IMG/VR virus record: IMGVR_UViG_3300010399_000035
Coordinates: 21,036-85,035 of that record
DNA: 64,000 bases
Source of the DNA: a virus
Strand: one strand, 5' to 3'
Of the stretch, positions 3,939-56,205 are shown piece by piece (position 1 is the first letter of the stretch; the number at the start of each line of letters is the position of its first letter). The translations under genes were made by a program, and so were the position numbers. Under the pieces are notes generated by a model that was not told where the DNA came from, ran no database searches, and saw only the letters and a list, made by a program, of their open reading frames with translations.

Positions 3939-5870
3939 ATGGGGACCTTCCGCGCATATACACTTAATAGCAAACAATACGTAGAGATAATTGCTACTGC
4001 TCTACCCGCCACAGATCGTAAGTGGGCAGGACTGTATGCACCTACTATACTAGGTAATATGGTAGACGGCGAATGGTTCTACTTTTGGGGCGCATACGCT
4101 CACTATGATTCATTTACTATAGACCTAGATCACCCGCAGAATACAGGGCCTTTCGTCTGGAGCAGCAGAGCACCGCTACCCAACTTCGTGACTATCACAG
4201 ACCTAGGTGGAGGTAACTTCAATTGGACTGTGCTCGTTAGCGGACCCAACTTCGACAATAGTAACGCTCAGCTGCCTGGAACGTTATACTTGATGAGCGG
4301 TGGGGTGCTATATCGCGCATATGTTGAAGTTATGACTGATAGCGAGAATGCATTCGTTCTGTCCGGTAGCGCTATGAGACGGAGGTTTACCGCAGAAATA
4401 GTATGGCGGCCTGGATTCCAGTATGTATCGTTTCCAGGGCCTACAACATTAGGGGCTCCAGCAACCTACGAGTGGATAGTGGTTCACGAAGATGGGAGCT
4501 CTGAATCGGTTTCTACGCTCCCAAAGCTAGATATAGACCCTCTCAAGCCAGCGTCGGGTGGGTTGTACAATACAGGACAAAGTCCATATCTACCTAAGCT
4601 ATACGCTCACACCTTAGACAGCCACGGTACAGAGGCCGACTGGTATCCGTCGAATGCTGGAGGTATCTTTGGATCATTTGGGTTCTACTGGAACTACTTC
4701 ATCCCTACCGCCAAAATCAAGGTAGATAACGGTACTAACCTCGGTTCCGGTAACTGGAGCGTGGACGACACCTTGGCTATTCTGGACGCTTCGGACTCGT
4801 TCGATCCCGACGGTACTATCGTAAACTATCATTGGATGATTGGATCTCCGCTCCAGAAAACGTATGATACTCCGGGACCCATCCTTCCGCTTGACTTCGA
4901 CGAAGGCTATCATAACTTGATTCAAGTACAGGTAACGGACAACGAAGGCTTCCAAGCTACTAGTCCGTATATCTCGCTACAGGTAGGAATCCGTGCTCGG
5001 CTGCTCTACGATAAGCATCTTCGTGCCCTATACTACTTCTATGCGGGATATCCGTTGTTCGTCAAGTGTGCTACTTCGTTCAACTTGGCTAGCTTCGATA
5101 CTTCCCAGGCAGTGTACACGTATCTGCACTTCTTTACCTTCGGAGAGCAGGCCATAGCGGCCACTAGCGCACTAGCAGCCTTCATGCTAGGCTCCATGCC
5201 TGCAGTAGCCTATACCTCCGGAGACTACGGTATCCAGTTATTCTACTCCAAGGATCATGGCGCGTCGTTCGTGCATACTCCGCTCTACGCAAACGCAGGG
5301 CTTTACGGCGGACTTTACAACGAACACACACGATCGCTCTTCATGCTGGGTATCACTACATACGGAGGACCTATTCGCCGCTTTTGCGCCCGCTACAATG
5401 GAGCGAACTGGACCACCGAACCAGCCGTAGACATACCTACGCTACCTTCAAGCAGCGTGGCGAATTGGCACCTTTTCTGGAGAGGCTCCACGTTGATGGT
5501 TGTGGTGGAGCACGACTCCGTAATCGAAATGTATGCCTCCAAGGATGACGGCTATACCTTCACCCTCCAGCACACCATTCCTGGCGGATATTCCCCGATG
5601 AGCGCCCGGTGGAATGATCATACACTGTCGGCGTATATCCTGTCCAGAAAAACGGGCGACCAAACCAACGTTTATAGGATCGTGGCCCGCACCAATGGCA
5701 ATGGGGATTGGGCGCATGACGATATAGCCCCAGTTAGCGGGATTCTAGCCGACTCTACGGGACTGGCGCACGAGATCGGCCAAGGGTCCGCCTATGCGAT
5801 TTCTCGCGCTGGAACGGCTTTAAACGCTGTGATTTCGAAGGATGAAGCATACAGCTACTCGGGGATTTGA
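3939..5870 (+). CDS. Minor tail protein with PKD domain and BNR/Asp-box repeats
   Basis: LDASDSFDPDGTIVNYHW (PKD-like); SKDHGASF, SKDDGYTF and SKDEAYSY Asp-box-like motifs. Confidence 0.6.
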   Translation: MGTFRAYTLNSKQYVEIIATALPATDRKWAGLYAPTILGNMVDGEWFYFWGAYAHYDSFTIDLDHPQNTGPFVWSSRAPLPNFVTITDLGGGNFNWTVLVSGPNFDNSNAQLPGTLYLMSGGVLYRAYVEVMTDSENAFVLSGSAMRRRFTAEIVWRPGFQYVSFPGPTTLGAPATYEWIVVHEDGSSESVSTLPKLDIDPLKPASGGLYNTGQSPYLPKLYAHTLDSHGTEADWYPSNAGGIFGSFGFYWNYFIPTAKIKVDNGTNLGSGNWSVDDTLAILDASDSFDPDGTIVNYHWMIGSPLQKTYDTPGPILPLDFDEGYHNLIQVQVTDNEGFQATSPYISLQVGIRARLLYDKHLRALYYFYAGYPLFVKCATSFNLASFDTSQAVYTYLHFFTFGEQAIAATSALAAFMLGSMPAVAYTSGDYGIQLFYSKDHGASFVHTPLYANAGLYGGLYNEHTRSLFMLGITTYGGPIRRFCARYNGANWTTEPAVDIPTLPSSSVANWHLFWRGSTLMVVVEHDSVIEMYASKDDGYTFTLQHTIPGGYSPMSARWNDHTLSAYILSRKTGDQTNVYRIVARTNGNGDWAHDDIAPVSGILADSTGLAHEIGQGSAYAISRAGTALNAVISKDEAYSYSGI

Positions 5871-13656: not shown

Positions 13657-13697
13657 TGATTTGGAGCTCCCGAACAGTTATTCGACCGTCACCAATC

Positions 13698-19241: not shown

Positions 19242-19559
19242 CTATAGTACCCAGAACTTATCGTACAATGCTAGTGCGCTCGCCCGTTCGTCGAGCGTCA
19301 TAGCCCGAAGTAGGTTAATACACCGCTGGCACACGTCGGCAAGATGGGTGGATTCTGTCGGGTCGGTTCGCGCTTGGTTAACCTGCTGCTGGCAGAAGTC
19401 TAGGTGATCATCTTCGAGGTTCCAGTCGTCGATCACGATATGTAAGTGGCCACCTGTACTGTGTAAATTGTATACCTCAGCAATTGCGGTGGCCGATTGG
19501 TATACCAAGGTGTTGTCGAGCATAGGAGCGCCATACTTCTGCCAGCAGCCGTAGCACAT
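19242..19559 (-). CDS. Hypothetical protein
   Basis: MCYGCW start overlapping the SDR stop; GGHLHIVIDDWN motif. Confidence 0.6.
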   Translation of the reverse strand: MCYGCWQKYGAPMLDNTLVYQSATAIAEVYNLHSTGGHLHIVIDDWNLEDDHLDFCQQQVNQARTDPTESTHLADVCQRCINLLRAMTLDERASALALYDKFWVL

Positions 19560-45320: not shown

Positions 45321-45551
45321 TCAAGGCTTCATCCCGACCAGCTGATCCTTTTCGTTCAGCGACATTTGCGAGTAGTAGCCGGAAGTGATGCGCAGCCATC
45401 CGGTGCCGTGCTTCACTTCGTTGCGGGCCGCGACCTTGGATAGCTTCATCCGGCGGACGGAACCGCTGCGGTCGATCTTCTGGTAGTGGCCGAAGCGGTC
45501 CTTCTTGTAGTCGTGGCGGACGCACCACGCTTCGAATTCGGAGCGGTTCAT
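45321..45551 (-). CDS. Small basic protein (paralog of 53878-54105)
   Basis: AAGGAG RBS; similarity seen by eye. Confidence 0.6.
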   Translation of the reverse strand: MNRSEFEAWCVRHDYKKDRFGHYQKIDRSGSVRRMKLSKVAARNEVKHGTGWLRITSGYYSQMSLNEKDQLVGMKP

Positions 45552-45718
45552 TTCGACTCCTTGGGGCAGGTGCAAGGCTTGGAGGTCCAGCCGTGGATCT
45601 TCCGGTTGGGGCACCAGTAGGCCCACTTTGTGTAGAGGGCCTTGGGCTCCAGCATCGTGCCATTGCAGTTCTCGATGCGTGTCTTGTGGTGCTTGTACAC
45701 GTTTCCGTGGCTGCTCAT
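45548..45718 (-). CDS. Small hypothetical protein
   Basis: AAGGAG RBS before MSSHG. Confidence 0.5.
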   Translation of the reverse strand: MSSHGNVYKHHKTRIENCNGTMLEPKALYTKWAYWCPNRKIHGWTSKPCTCPKESK

Positions 45719-45803
45719 ACGAACTCCTTTTAACGTCTTTAGCGTTGCCTGGGCTTGGAACCAGGACTGCCGCATTACGGCCCGGAGGGGCCGTCCTCTG
45801 CGA

Positions 45804-46022
45804 TTAGAAGGAATCGTCTTCCACATCGTCGGCGAACTCCGCGAAGGCCAGTTCCTGCGCCTCGATGTAGGCATCAAAGGCGGCTTCGTTGGCGTCCGCT
45901 TCAGCATTGAGCCGCGCATACTCCTGGCTTTCCATATCCATGCAATACGCCTCGTGGGCACGCTCGGCGCGGAGGTTCTCGACTTCCTGGCTGTAGGCTT
46001 CGCGGTTCAATGGTTGGCTCAT
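45804..46022 (-). CDS. Small acidic protein
   Basis: AGGAG RBS; very Asp/Glu-rich, possibly a DNA mimic. Confidence 0.6.
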   Translation of the reverse strand: MSQPLNREAYSQEVENLRAERAHEAYCMDMESQEYARLNAEADANEAAFDAYIEAQELAFAEFADDVEDDSF

Positions 46023-51889: not shown

Positions 51890-52861
51890 TTAACTCGTAT
51901 CGCCCAACAACCACTCCTTGACGTCTTCGTAGTTGTCGGAAATGGCGAGCAGGGTTTCCTTTGCCTCGTCCTCTTCGTTCATGTCGTCGGCCCACTGGTT
52001 CTCGTCGCGGAGGGAGAGGACTTCAGCGGTGATTAGGTCTGCCAGGTTGCTGGGAGCCATCGCATCCAACTCCCACGATTCCTCGCCGAACTCGTCTATG
52101 TAGGCACCTGCGCGAGGATCCGTCACTTTGGCCGGATCCGGCGGCAAGCTATATAACTCAACCTGATCCATATTGAGCGCGATGCGCCGAACGGAGATAT
52201 CTCTCCCAGAAAAGAGGGCCAATCGATCATCGATGTCCCGCGTCATGTCTTTGCCGGATGGGTCGTGGTCGCCAAGGTGGATGACGACTGGTTTACGGTC
52301 GTTAGTGTCCGCCGCCTTCCGCAGCCTTTGTCCAGCTCCCCAAAGTTCCGAAGACGAAGTGTACCCGCGACAGGAGAAGTGGGGTACGTCCAGTGGTTGG
52401 CAGGCTTGCTCCACGATGCCGATTAAGGCATCCTTCTCGACCCATACCTCTACGTAGTAAGGTTGGAGTAGCCATTTATCAAGCCGGAACTGATCCGCTA
52501 CAGCACCTAGGATATCGCTGGGAGAATCCCAGTGTGGCAAGTTGCGCAAGTTCCTGGTGCGATCCGTAATGTGCGTCCAGTCTAGCAAACCGCCGTAGCG
52601 GGCCTCATTCAAGATACCACCAAGCTTCTTGTAGTTCTTCATGGTGTTCTTGGTGTCGGGTGATAGACCGTTGCGACGGTTATATACCGGATCTATCCAA
52701 GAGTCTGGGAAATAGTCGTGCGCGATGAACTGGTAGTATAGCTGGCGGAGGGTAAGGTCGTAGCCCAACGCATGCCATTCGCGAATGATGGCATTCGCCT
52801 GCTCGATGATGGCCAGCTTCTCTGGACGGAATTTGATGTAGCGGTAGGCAATGCGGGGCAT
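51890..52861 (-). CDS. Topo VI-A / DUF2399-like Toprim protein
   Basis: TLRQLYYQ, EVWVEKDAL, RGY, HLGDHDPSG, WELDA. Confidence 0.75.
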   Translation of the reverse strand: MPRIAYRYIKFRPEKLAIIEQANAIIREWHALGYDLTLRQLYYQFIAHDYFPDSWIDPVYNRRNGLSPDTKNTMKNYKKLGGILNEARYGGLLDWTHITDRTRNLRNLPHWDSPSDILGAVADQFRLDKWLLQPYYVEVWVEKDALIGIVEQACQPLDVPHFSCRGYTSSSELWGAGQRLRKAADTNDRKPVVIHLGDHDPSGKDMTRDIDDRLALFSGRDISVRRIALNMDQVELYSLPPDPAKVTDPRAGAYIDEFGEESWELDAMAPSNLADLITAEVLSLRDENQWADDMNEEDEAKETLLAISDNYEDVKEWLLGDTS

Positions 52862-53776: not shown

Positions 53777-53821
53777 TGGATCTCTCCCAGAAGATGGCGC
53801 TACATTCTGCCACCACTAAGT

Positions 53822-53880
53822 ATTATAACCGATCCGTATGCCTTTGGGGGCCTTTTCCACGAACAATTTCGAAAATATTA
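53822..53880 (-). promoter_or_regulatory. Promoter family B copy
   Basis: Minus strand GAAAAGGCCCCCAAAG...GGATCGGTTATAAT. Confidence 0.7.
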
Positions 53881-54105
53881 TTCGAGCTCTTTCAGCCCTA
53901 CCAGCTTGTCGTCATCGTTGATCGTCAGGTATCTATACTCGCCCCACTTTAATCCATGCCAGCCGCTACTTCCTACCGTCTTGGATTCCAAGCGAACGTA
54001 CCGCTCGTTCAGCTTCAGCCGTTTGTTAGCCTTATATAGGTGGTTGTTTTGGCCGACGATCCAGCCACGAGCGGTAGCCCATTCGACTAGCGATTGTTTG
54101 GTCAT
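53878..54105 (-). CDS. Small basic protein (paralog of 45321-45551)
   Basis: GGAGG RBS. Confidence 0.6.
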   Translation of the reverse strand: MTKQSLVEWATARGWIVGQNNHLYKANKRLKLNERYVRLESKTVGSSGWHGLKWGEYRYLTINDDDKLVGLKELE

Positions 54106-54123: not shown

Positions 54124-54354
54124 TTATATGCCGTTTATAGCATCTTCGATCTCGCGTTTGCTGAAGACAGGTTCCGGTTGGTTGGTACCTTCGTCGTTGG
54201 TGTAGTAGGTTACGAAGATATATGCTTCGTTGTCCATTTCAACCAGGACGATGATGTCGCCTTCGTCGTTGGAGAGCACTTGTGCGGTGGAGCCATCGGT
54301 GGTGGGAGTGTAGCCAAGGGTGGCTAGGTGGGCGGAGGCTGCGGGGACGTTCAT
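54124..54354 (-). CDS. Hypothetical protein
   Basis: AAGGA RBS. Confidence 0.55.
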   Translation of the reverse strand: MNVPAASAHLATLGYTPTTDGSTAQVLSNDEGDIIVLVEMDNEAYIFVTYYTNDEGTNQPEPVFSKREIEDAINGI

Positions 54355-54390
54355 TTGGTTCCTTATAATGAGGTAGATATTGATGGGGTA

Positions 54391-54566
54391 GCAAGGCTGG
54401 TTGACCTACTAAATGCATCATCGCAAACTCAAGGTTTGCTCCGCCTTTTCAGTCTCAGCCAGATTCGTACAAATCAGCGGTCCCATATTGCAGGACTTGA
54501 AGACTACGTCGGGGCCATGCCAGGGTCAGTTGCGCAGCGGACGCAACCTTCTGGAACCAGCCTTGC
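54391..54566 (-). ncRNA. Candidate structured ncRNA (~176 nt)
   Basis: 12-bp closing helix plus nested helices and four hairpins; G-U pairs are compatible with the minus strand. Confidence 0.55.
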
Positions 54567-54570
54567 CTGA

Positions 54571-54631
54571 CAACAAGTGATGGATTCGAACCATCTTCCC
54601 TGTGGGGAGCGCCCGGATGCGCAACTTGTTG
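54571..54631 (-). ncRNA. Miniature tRNA-like element (61 nt, truncated anticodon arm)
   Basis: Acceptor-like stem CAACAAGT/ACTTGTTG; T arm GATGG-TTCGAAT-CCATC. Confidence 0.6.
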
Positions 54632-54640
54632 ATTCCTAGT

Positions 54641-55756
54641 TTACGTCTCCTTCAATGGGTTATAGCTAGTCTCGTCCTCGTCGAAGCTCCAGGCGACGCC
54701 TTCCTTGGCCGTTCGAATCGTTGGCGGTACCATAAGGTAATAGGGCTTAAATTGGCCATCGGGCTCCGGGGTTGAGTTGATGACTTTGACCATAACCTCC
54801 CGCTCCCCGCCACGGAAGCGACCTTGCTCTGGAGGATCTATAACGTAGAGTTCGCCATACTCATCCTGCTGCGCTAGGCGAGCTCCAGCGGCTTTCAGGA
54901 ATCGTTCCCGCCCAAACGAATCGATCATGATGCGGCGAACTTCCATGTTCCAAGTTTCGCGAATCTCTTTGATCGTCATCTTCTCTGGCTGCTCAACTAA
55001 ATGCTCTTTGACGGACACTCCGACCAGATGATGGAGCCCAAACCCGTCAGACCACGCTACGGAAGGACCCTCCGCGTTATGGATTCGGCCTTGCTCGTCG
55101 CGGTGGAAGCGAACGTGCTTACGGCAGGCTAGGATAGCGTGTTCGTGTGCCCAGAACGGTCCGGCTAGAGCAAGTATTGTGTTGGCAGCCGATACGACCT
55201 CGGTGGGCAACTTGGACTTCGCGCCTAGCGCCACGCGATCCAAGTCATCTCCAGCCAACACCAATGTAAACGTGTTGGCCGCTTTAGAGTTAACGACCTT
55301 GTCCAACTGCCCCGTTAGGTCGATGCTGAACCGACTATGAAGCGTGCGGGACTCGCCGAAACTGCGTAGTAGGTCAAAGTACCCGTTGACTCTTGGGTAG
55401 TTATACCTGCCCAACAGCAAGTGGTATAAGTTCGGCCCTAGCCCAAGTTTGCCGTTTTCGGTTAGGTGCTGCCAGGCGGCGACTGCAGCCGGGGCGTAAG
55501 CCTTGCACTTGCGTGCGTTGTAGATCGATCGTGTGGTAGGTACGTATAGAGAATCGTTGAGAGCGCAAGTGGCATGCACCATGGCTGCCGCCAGCGGGGA
55601 ATCGAACCATACAATACGATTCGGGTAAGTCTGGTCGCTAGCTTCATATATGGTGCGTAGGGCCTGTTCAACTTCGGCTTCGTCTGCTTTGGTCGTGGCT
55701 CTGGGTTCTACCGCAACTTTGTACGGGTCCATCTTAAAACTCCTTTTCCCGCCCAC
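54641..55756 (-). CDS. DUF6745-like protein
   Basis: WFDSP, DEQGRIHNAEGPSVAWSDG, NMEVRR, VINSTPEPDG, VPPTIRTAKEGVAWSF. Confidence 0.7.
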   Translation of the reverse strand: MGGKRSFKMDPYKVAVEPRATTKADEAEVEQALRTIYEASDQTYPNRIVWFDSPLAAAMVHATCALNDSLYVPTTRSIYNARKCKAYAPAAVAAWQHLTENGKLGLGPNLYHLLLGRYNYPRVNGYFDLLRSFGESRTLHSRFSIDLTGQLDKVVNSKAANTFTLVLAGDDLDRVALGAKSKLPTEVVSAANTILALAGPFWAHEHAILACRKHVRFHRDEQGRIHNAEGPSVAWSDGFGLHHLVGVSVKEHLVEQPEKMTIKEIRETWNMEVRRIMIDSFGRERFLKAAGARLAQQDEYGELYVIDPPEQGRFRGGEREVMVKVINSTPEPDGQFKPYYLMVPPTIRTAKEGVAWSFDEDETSYNPLKET

Positions 55757-55781
55757 CTACCCTAAATAATCGGCCCTCAGT

Positions 55782-56108
55782 TTAATCCGCCACGTAGCGG
55801 TTGTACTCTGGGGTATATTCGCGCTGGCGGCGAACTTCGTAGTAGCCAGGCTCTAGGTCGATCGGCGCGTGTTCGTCGTGAACCACAACGCCCGGATCTA
55901 CCAACTTCAAGAACCGACGACCCTCCTCGGTTTCCAGCAGTTCGGCGACCCCACCCTCAGCGCACTCCGCAACATGGGCATGTCCGGTGACCTCGCCGTA
56001 GGCCAGAATGACCCGACCTTCGTCCTTCGGGACTGGCTTCAGGGTTGCTTCCGGCATCCCAACCCGAACCAGCAGAATGTCCCCTTGGCGATACATTTTC
56101 TTTTGCAT
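55782..56108 (-). CDS. Conserved His-rich partner of the DUF6745-like protein
   Basis: YRQGDI, LAYGEVTGHAH, HDEH, RQREY motifs. Confidence 0.7.
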   Translation of the reverse strand: MQKKMYRQGDILLVRVGMPEATLKPVPKDEGRVILAYGEVTGHAHVAECAEGGVAELLETEEGRRFLKLVDPGVVVHDEHAPIDLEPGYYEVRRQREYTPEYNRYVAD

Positions 56109-56149
56109 TAATACCTCCTTCCAACCAATGGTTTTGGCTTCCACCGTAT

Positions 56150-56205
56150 ATTATGCCTCAAGCGAACAGCTTTGGGGGCCGTTTTCAGGTTTATACTAAA
56201 ATAAC
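56150..56205 (-). promoter_or_regulatory. Promoter family B copy at the head of the leftward arm
   Basis: Minus strand GAAAACGGCCCCCAAAG...GAGGCATAAT. Confidence 0.65.

Follow-up and report, generated by a model that had tools for sequence, protein, structure and literature searches.

Long-range processing stems for RNase III, as found in rRNA operons and in the early mRNAs of phage T7, are helices that form from sequences flanking an RNA segment within a polycistronic transcript. The tRNA cluster of phage T4 also contains species 1 and 2 (rnaC/rnaD), two RNAs of 120–140 nt and unknown function that are co-transcribed with tRNA-shaped RNAs and released by tRNA-processing enzymes. At tRNA mimics of the mascRNA/menRNA type (MALAT1, MEN-beta), RNase P and RNase Z recognise the acceptor stem, the T arm and the GG elbow of the D loop, and their cuts separate the flanking RNAs (PMC11693755). 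YrlA, a bacterial Y RNA (RF02553) that also occurs in phages, combines an end-to-end closing helix with a tRNA-like module (PMC4201824). Here we describe a 176-nt element of a soil phage (positions 54391–54566, minus strand), which starts four nt after a tRNA mimic and is closed by a 12-bp helix (P1). The element is probably a real leader RNA, but it is not the elaborate multi-junction RNA that was first proposed for this sequence.

The source record is an 85-kb IMG/VR phage contig from a soil metagenome, of which a stretch of 64,000 nt was analysed (the window). The element lies in a 286-nt gap without ORF (54355–54640, minus strand), which is flanked by the DUF6745 gene and gp76. All three minus-strand frames of the gap carry stops or lack a start codon, so the gap is truly non-coding, and the plus-strand ORFs in the same interval have no family match. 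A small ORF within the element was rejected, since its frames are not common to the window phage and L136, the relative described below. The minus-strand unit consists, in order, of a promoter-like repeat, gp120, the DUF6745 gene, the RNA module, gp76 and gp81. The repeat that heads the unit (56147–56187) is 41 nt long and belongs to a family with nine copies in the window (at 13695, 42582, 43578, 46059, 47354, 50861, 51612, 53819 and 56147; minus-strand reading GAAAAGGCCCCCAAAC...GATCGGTTATAAT). Such copies are located at the head of minus-strand gene blocks, often alongside an AT-rich palindrome, and the next one (53819–53859) brackets a single transcription unit together with the copy at 56147–56187. 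A different dispersed motif of about 30 nt (GCGGAG..CTCTCCCAGAAGATGGGCC; for example at 1222, 12055, 41728, 46234, 52192, 53773, 60872 and 61631) occurs on both strands, within and between genes, and has no copy inside the element. Public sequencing runs that contain this DNA are limited to the DNA source sample, with no RNA run listed, and the contigs of the source run present a single form at the locus, without variants.

The pair formed by gp120 and the DUF6745 gene, which separates the promoter from the module, occupies 54641–56144 (minus strand), and the DUF6745 gene itself (54641–55756) matches its Pfam family with an E value of 1e-48. The first gene downstream of the module, gp76 (54124–54354, minus strand), encodes 76 amino acids and has a homolog of 66% identity at the same position in L136. 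Its ribosome-binding site, AAGGA, is located 22–36 nt from P1 (about 25 nt in the window). The second gene, gp81 (53878–54105, minus strand), encodes a protein of 75–81 amino acids, and its L136 homolog is 73% identical. Family searches with gp76 returned no match, and the atlas hits for gp76 and gp81 stayed below lead level. The predicted model of gp81 (pLDDT 93.5) is composed of a helix plus four strands, and fold searches with it gave no clear match (best Foldseek E value 0.73, best VIA Z 4.7). A gp81 paralog (45321–45551, minus strand; 35% identity, E value 5e-7) is encoded downstream of a twister ribozyme, and the two proteins form a small family with no match in Pfam, PHROG, NCBIfam or the PDB. 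Both gp81 and the paralog are found two genes downstream of an RNA-processing element.

All the helices that the earlier note listed are present in the minus strand of 54391–54566, and the 12-bp arms (GCAAGGCTGGTT/AACCAGCCTTGC), which are separated by 152 nt, are 100% complementary. The MFE structure of the 176 nt predicted by RNAfold (−65.2 kcal/mol) recovers most of them: the GGUUGCG and GCAAAC/GUUUGC hairpins both form, as does AGUCUU/GAGACU together with the two hairpins that it encloses. It replaces the nested GACC/GGUC and GCAU/AUGC pairs by CCAG/CUGG. As judged by eye, these two nested helices are also not collinear or not conserved in L136 and were discarded. Eight G-U pairs are present in the MFE structure, mostly at helix ends. 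The whole element folds better than its shuffled versions (z-score −2.4 on the minus strand and −2.2 to −2.3 on the plus strand). In contrast, the inner 152 nt alone fold no better than shuffles (+0.11 on the minus strand and +0.35 on the plus strand), which indicates that the entire folding signal comes from the 12-bp repeat. When 3192 windows of 176 nt from the same phage are compared, 10% fold as well or better, and the GC-adjusted deviation of the element is −1.6 sd. The window contains 11 perfect inverted repeats of at least 12 bp, compared with 0.67 in shuffled sequence, and two of them have a spacer longer than 100 nt; we estimate the chance of such a repeat falling inside the 212-nt ORF-free stretch at about 1e-3. 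The second perfect 12-bp inverted repeat with a long spacer is located at 19385–19549 (GCTGCTGGCAGA, 141 nt between the arms).

To find relatives of the element, we scanned IMG/VR for the two arms separated by a gap of 135–165 nt. The scan returned two contigs, L136 and L137, from samples 3300025919 and 3300005339. They are 100% identical over 8.3 kb and therefore represent the same phage recovered twice, which leaves one independent comparator. The same two contigs, and no others, were retrieved by an IMG/VR scan for the 18-mer around the 3´ arm and by a scan with the gp76 alignment. The core genes of L136 share 80–85% nucleotide identity with those of the window. The order of features in L136 is the promoter motif, a 5´ hairpin, a 76-nt tRNA-like RNA, an extra domain of about 106 nt, a 168-nt element, gp76 and gp81. 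The element therefore has the same position in both phages, after the tRNA-like RNA and before the ribosome-binding site of gp76. The L136 copy (5597–5764, minus strand) is recognised by model R1, a covariance model of the window's fold, with 30.3 bits and an E value of about 1e-6. The antisense strand of L136 scores only 11.8 bits with the same model, in agreement with the strand that was originally assigned to the RNA.

The extra domain of L136 (5765–5874, minus strand), which is located between the tRNA-like RNA and the element, is missing from the window. The domain has a closing helix of 10 bp (GCAACCAGGA/UCCUGGUUUGC), in which the P1 words AACCAG/CUGGUU are used again, and it holds a T-arm-like hairpin, GGUAG-UUGAGUC-CUGCC. 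Conversely, gp120 and the DUF6745 gene (54641–56144) are missing at the syntenic site of L136, and a Toprim-like gene of the window (topoisomerase PHROG; 51890–52861) is missing at its syntenic place as well. Both differences are insertions or deletions in a region that is otherwise 80–85% identical. Among 45 other phage DUF6745 genes, another ORF mostly follows at once downstream, and neither a tRNA-like T-loop nor the element is found there. Together with the absence of the gene at the L136 site, this indicates that DUF6745 is not the partner of the RNA. The proposal that the RNA acts with its flanking proteins thus fails for DUF6745, and only gp76 and gp81 are syntenic.

Beyond L136 and L137, no relative of the element was detected by blastn against 50,697 GenBank phages, or by blastn, nhmmer and model R1 on 12, 50 and 71 loci anchored on the Toprim-like gene or DUF6745. 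The phages that share the Toprim-like gene do so at 46–59% amino acid identity (83 loci in all). Neither these 83 loci nor the 50 DUF6745 phage loci show synteny with the window or a match to the element or the mimic, and model R2 recovered nothing but true tRNAs from the Toprim- and DUF6745-anchored loci. Single-protein scans of IMG/VR with gp76 and with DUF6745 gave no relative, and gp76 was not found in the 401 Acidobacteriota genomes searched. A pattern built from the T arm and the acceptor stem had one match, in a coding sequence of an Acidobacteria genome, which was dismissed as a chance match.

The comparison with L136 separates the conserved parts of the element from the variable ones. 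The 5´ strand of P1 (GCAAGGCUGGUU, 54555–54566) lies within an invariant 15-mer (GGCAAGGCUGGUUCC, 54553–54567), and the 3´ strand (AACCAGCCUUGC, 54391–54402) lies within an invariant 18-mer (UCAACCAGCCUUGCUACC, 54387–54404), all on the minus strand. Arms and flanks are thus identical at 33 of 33 positions (15/15 and 18/18), whereas the interior is about 56% identical and the adjoining gp76 region 70%. From these identities, the chance of such invariance may be put at or below 0.7^33, approximately 8e-6. Stacked on P1 is P1a (CCAG/CUGG; 54520–54554), which encloses the P2 hairpin GGUUGCGU-CCGCU-GCGCAACU. In L136, P1a reads CCG/CGG, with three pairs kept, one of them compensatory, and P2, which is specific to the window, is swapped for an 8-nt loop. 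Directly 3´ of P1a, the covariance-model alignment of both phages reveals a conserved joint, GCAUGG (54515–54520). It is followed by a variable centre (54440–54514), which carries the window's predicted P3 domain with its two hairpins and retains the islands UGCA, GCUGAU, CUGAGA and GGAGC. The P4 hairpin, GCAAAC-CUUGA-GUUUGC (54423–54439), comes next, and a conserved and mostly unpaired 3´ joint, UGCGAUGAU-N(4-6)-AGUAG-N-UC (54403–54425), runs into the 3´ strand of P1. The short conserved islands of the element are accordingly GCAUGG, GCUGAU, CUGAGA, GGAGC, UGCGAUGAU and AGUAG.

In L136, P4 is replaced at the same place by CUACGC-GCUGCA-GCGUAG. Four of its six pairs are changed on both sides in the best-hairpin register; in the model-fitted register, all six pairs are kept, with three changed on both sides and one on one side. 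The same model-fitted alignment leaves P1 unchanged at 12 of 12 pairs and provides no counterpart for the other five window helices. The dominant predicted shapes of the two RNAs differ, and the positional pairing-conservation score stays at null level (12.2 vs 9.8 ± 4.9). Forcing L136 into the window's P3 and P3´ helices costs 9–14 kcal/mol, compared with 2.4 kcal/mol for P1, P1a and P4 together. As read from these two sequences, the scaffold common to both phages comprises the clamp, the short helix stacked on it, in which the insert varies, a single hairpin and the conserved joints, all placed around a freely drifting centre of about 100 nt. The description of a highly structured multi-junction RNA is therefore not borne out, given an interior z-score near zero, differing shapes, a null pairing score and the cost of forcing P3. 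What looked like rich structure in the 176 nt is almost entirely one 12-bp repeat, and a single relative sufficed to sort the scaffold (P1, P1a, P4 and the joints) from incidental hairpins. Two further pairings were set aside. A 9-nt perfect complement between the 5´ half of the tRNA mimic and the 3´ strand of P2 was taken as chance because P2 is missing in L136, and a hammerhead-like CUGAGA...GAAA was rejected for want of a helix II.

The weak interior raises the question of whether the region is a drifting spacer without function, such as a decayed array of small tRNA-like RNAs, in which the identity of the arms is a by-product of recent shared ancestry. The interior z-score near zero and a fold that is unremarkable against the genome background fit this explanation, as do the poor cloverleaves that ARAGORN draws in the L136 leader at a lowered threshold and the weak resemblance of the L136 extra domain to part of the window interior (p 0.05), which suggests rearrangement. 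We nevertheless consider it improbable. An invariant 33 of 33 positions beside sequence of 56–70% identity is very unlikely under drift, and P4 and P1a have been kept through compensatory change. Moreover, it is rare for tightly packed phage genomes to retain 170 nt of junk at one site across approximately 80% identity, and an array would have had nothing to decay from, as these phages possess no ordinary tRNA genes.

Structural selection is also apparent in the adjacent tRNA mimic (54571–54631, minus strand), a separate finding that belongs to the same RNA module. The mimic is a 61-nt cloverleaf without an anticodon or a real anticodon arm, and it aligns to the tRNA-like RNA of L136 (5875–5950). 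Four of the seven acceptor-stem pairs are compensatory between the two phages, with the first three and the last three positions the same, and in the T stem three of the five pairs differ on both sides but still pair. These counts were read from the alignment; the count given by the tool agrees but takes in one spurious antisense row. The elbow is represented by GG in the D loop and UUCGAAU in the T loop. To judge from this alignment, the anticodon region is dispensable, and the acceptor stem, the T arm and the D-loop GG elbow, which are the parts recognised in mascRNA-type mimics, are under selection. ARAGORN labels the L136 RNA as tRNA-Leu(UAA), although it lacks U33 and the long arm of leucine tRNAs. 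The Rfam tRNA model rejects the L136 RNA, as it does everything else in the three genomes. The compensatory changes in the acceptor and T stems indicate that the mimic is a real RNA on this strand, and hence that this strand is transcribed and RNA structure is important here.

Since P1 never varies, it yields no covariation, and an RNA role and a DNA role are inseparable on P1 alone. The arms might instead be inverted binding or recombination sites in the DNA, namely an operator pair, an invertible switch or the ends of a small mobile element, with the RNA folds incidental. Perfect conservation of the arms and of their non-symmetric flanks without covariation is what such sites would produce, the plus strand folds almost equally well, and the interior evolves fast. 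However, the interior has the same orientation in both phages (direct z 4.2, inverted 1.2), and the source run contains neither an inverted nor a deleted form. Inverted repeats flank a short segment upstream of a gene here, as in an inverton; this class was rejected on account of the shared orientation and the lack of strand-changing joints in the source-run contigs, which can miss rare forms. A MITE-like element was rejected likewise: the element is present in a single copy per genome in three genomes, with no other exact copies of the arms, and no target-site duplication is found at the arm ends, where the flanks read ...GUCAG on one side and UACCCC on the other. The arms are 8 bp closer together in L136 than in the window, which would alter the helical phasing of paired DNA sites. 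Finally, the compensatory pairing in P1a and P4 makes sense only in RNA, and the adjoining tRNA-like RNA is clearly RNA. With this evidence, a feature of the DNA is very unlikely.

Comparison with known RNA families supports the view that the element is not a member of any of them, as the earlier note had supposed. Rfam 15 returned nothing at E ≤ 10 over 54200–54800 except a 17-nt T-arm fragment and no match in the L136 leader, and the only hit in the window at the Rfam gathering score is a Twister-P5 ribozyme elsewhere. ARAGORN at default settings found neither tRNA nor tmRNA in the window, and no tmRNA with -ps either. The cloverleaves drawn with -ps70 and a 'tmRNAp' in L136 were rejected as poor, and the coordinates of the latter run past the end of the sequence. 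A tmRNA is further contradicted by the lack of the G3:U70 alanine identity pair (the acceptor stems are AAC.../...GUU, with C3-G70, in both phages) and by the tag frame: AVFD...LRAAA of L136 is not matched in the window, whose corresponding frame runs into a stop after 5 codons. The perfect 12-bp inverted repeat bounds the element as in the msr-msd RNA of a retron; this identity was rejected, as there is no RVT_1 match at E ≤ 1 in the whole 85-kb record, and the downstream genes encode 76 and 75–81 amino acids. YrlA or another Y RNA was excluded because the genome (a record that is about 80% complete) contains no TROVE match and the tRNA-like RNA lies 5´ of and outside P1. A riboswitch or a similar cis-regulatory leader was rejected on three grounds: the central fold is not conserved, no terminator follows P1, and the ribosome-binding site of gp76 is free in the predicted fold.

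The reading that we favour, with a probability of roughly 45%, is that the element would belong to the gp76-gp81 operon as a processed leader or intercistronic RNA, with a sequence-specific helix as its clamp. The element would form the 3´ part of a non-coding module, in which a tRNA-like RNA is followed by a clamp-helix RNA, and the module would serve as the leader of the gp76-gp81 operon in L136 and as an intercistronic spacer in the window phage. The module is located on the sense strand, downstream of the repeated phage promoter motif, and a near-identical copy of this motif lies directly upstream of the module in L136. We infer that host RNase P and RNase Z or RNase E cut at the mimic, as at mascRNA-type mimics, so that the downstream RNA would begin a few nt ahead of P1. 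The clamp would then be a base-paired, sequence-specific 5´ end of the gp76-gp81 message, which may control the stability of the message, its further cleavage (e.g. by a double-strand-specific nuclease) or protein binding. The total invariance of its sequence suggests that the clamp is read by a sequence-specific partner and may be more than a mere helix. Counting against cleavage of the clamp as a classical RNase III site, 12 bp is short for such a site; the geometry is a helix of 12–13 bp with the 3–4 bp of P1a stacked on it. No simple translational switch is visible, since the predicted fold does not sequester the gp76 ribosome-binding site. The extra domain of about 106 nt in L136 implies that no constant spacing is kept between the presumed cut and the clamp.

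The phage does put RNA-cutting elements between cistrons, as the Twister-P5 ribozyme (45749–45802, minus strand; RF02684, 53.2 bits, E value 3e-8) lies between cistrons of another minus-strand operon. It starts one nt after the stop codon of a 72-aa ORF (45804–46022), and about 30 nt separate its end from the start codon (ATG) of a Cys-rich ORF of 56 aa (45548–45718). The gp81 paralog is next.

The same processing could also release a free RNA of about 170 nt that acts in trans, if the tRNA-processing enzymes were joined by a second cut near P1. The clamp and the joint would then serve as a decoy or as the binding site of a protein, which might be gp76, gp81 or a host factor, and the centre would be a tolerated insert. 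The invariant P1 and the conserved single-stranded joint do resemble a recognition site, and the L136 module comes directly after a promoter and before the first gene, as a gene for a stable RNA would. However, the interval between P1 and the ribosome-binding site of gp76 shows neither a terminator nor a second processing signal, and gp76 and gp81 belong to no recognisable RNA-binding family or fold, which makes such a free RNA unlikely. A broader form of this idea, which we also hold to be doubtful, is that the mimic and the clamp RNA together exemplify a class of phage non-coding RNA cassettes, as yet undescribed, that act in trans. Here host tRNA-processing enzymes or, as at the twister site, self-cleaving ribozymes would release a small RNA, and the invariant clamp and joint would be read by a specific partner. 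The RNA would have a role in trans during infection, for instance as a decoy, a sponge or a protein scaffold, and would not be merely an mRNA leader.

If the processed leader or intercistronic RNA that we favour is real, the phage would use a tRNA look-alike that does not decode as a cutting mark, with an RNA right behind this mark whose only strictly conserved part is a sequence-specific clamp, an arrangement that has no entry in Rfam. This may be one instance of a recurring, undescribed phage theme, in which tRNA mimics or ribozymes stand beside closed-stem RNAs. Among the known systems, the retron msr-msd RNA has a similar outline, with a length of about 170 nt and inverted repeats of about 12 nt at its ends; here the 85-kb record yielded no reverse transcriptase, and the next gene, gp76, codes for 76 amino acids. 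YrlA has its tRNA-like domain inside the closing helix and is accompanied by a gene for Ro60 (TROVE), whereas the tRNA-like RNA described here is outside P1. The RNase III stems share with P1 a helix formed by flanking sequences between cistrons. They differ in that P1 has only 12–13 bp and is conserved in sequence, while rRNA operons conserve the enclosed RNA and not the stem. Species 1 and 2 of T4 can be likened to the element by description only, and T4 has real tRNAs alongside them, whereas these phages have only the tRNA-like RNA. The mimic itself is comparable to mascRNA and menRNA, as a small mimic inside a longer transcript with an acceptor stem, a T arm, a D-loop GG elbow and a stunted anticodon arm. 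Those mimics are eukaryotic and nuclear, and their functional partner lies 5´ of the mimic; in the phage operon, where we infer the cleavage, the structured RNA lies 3´ of it.
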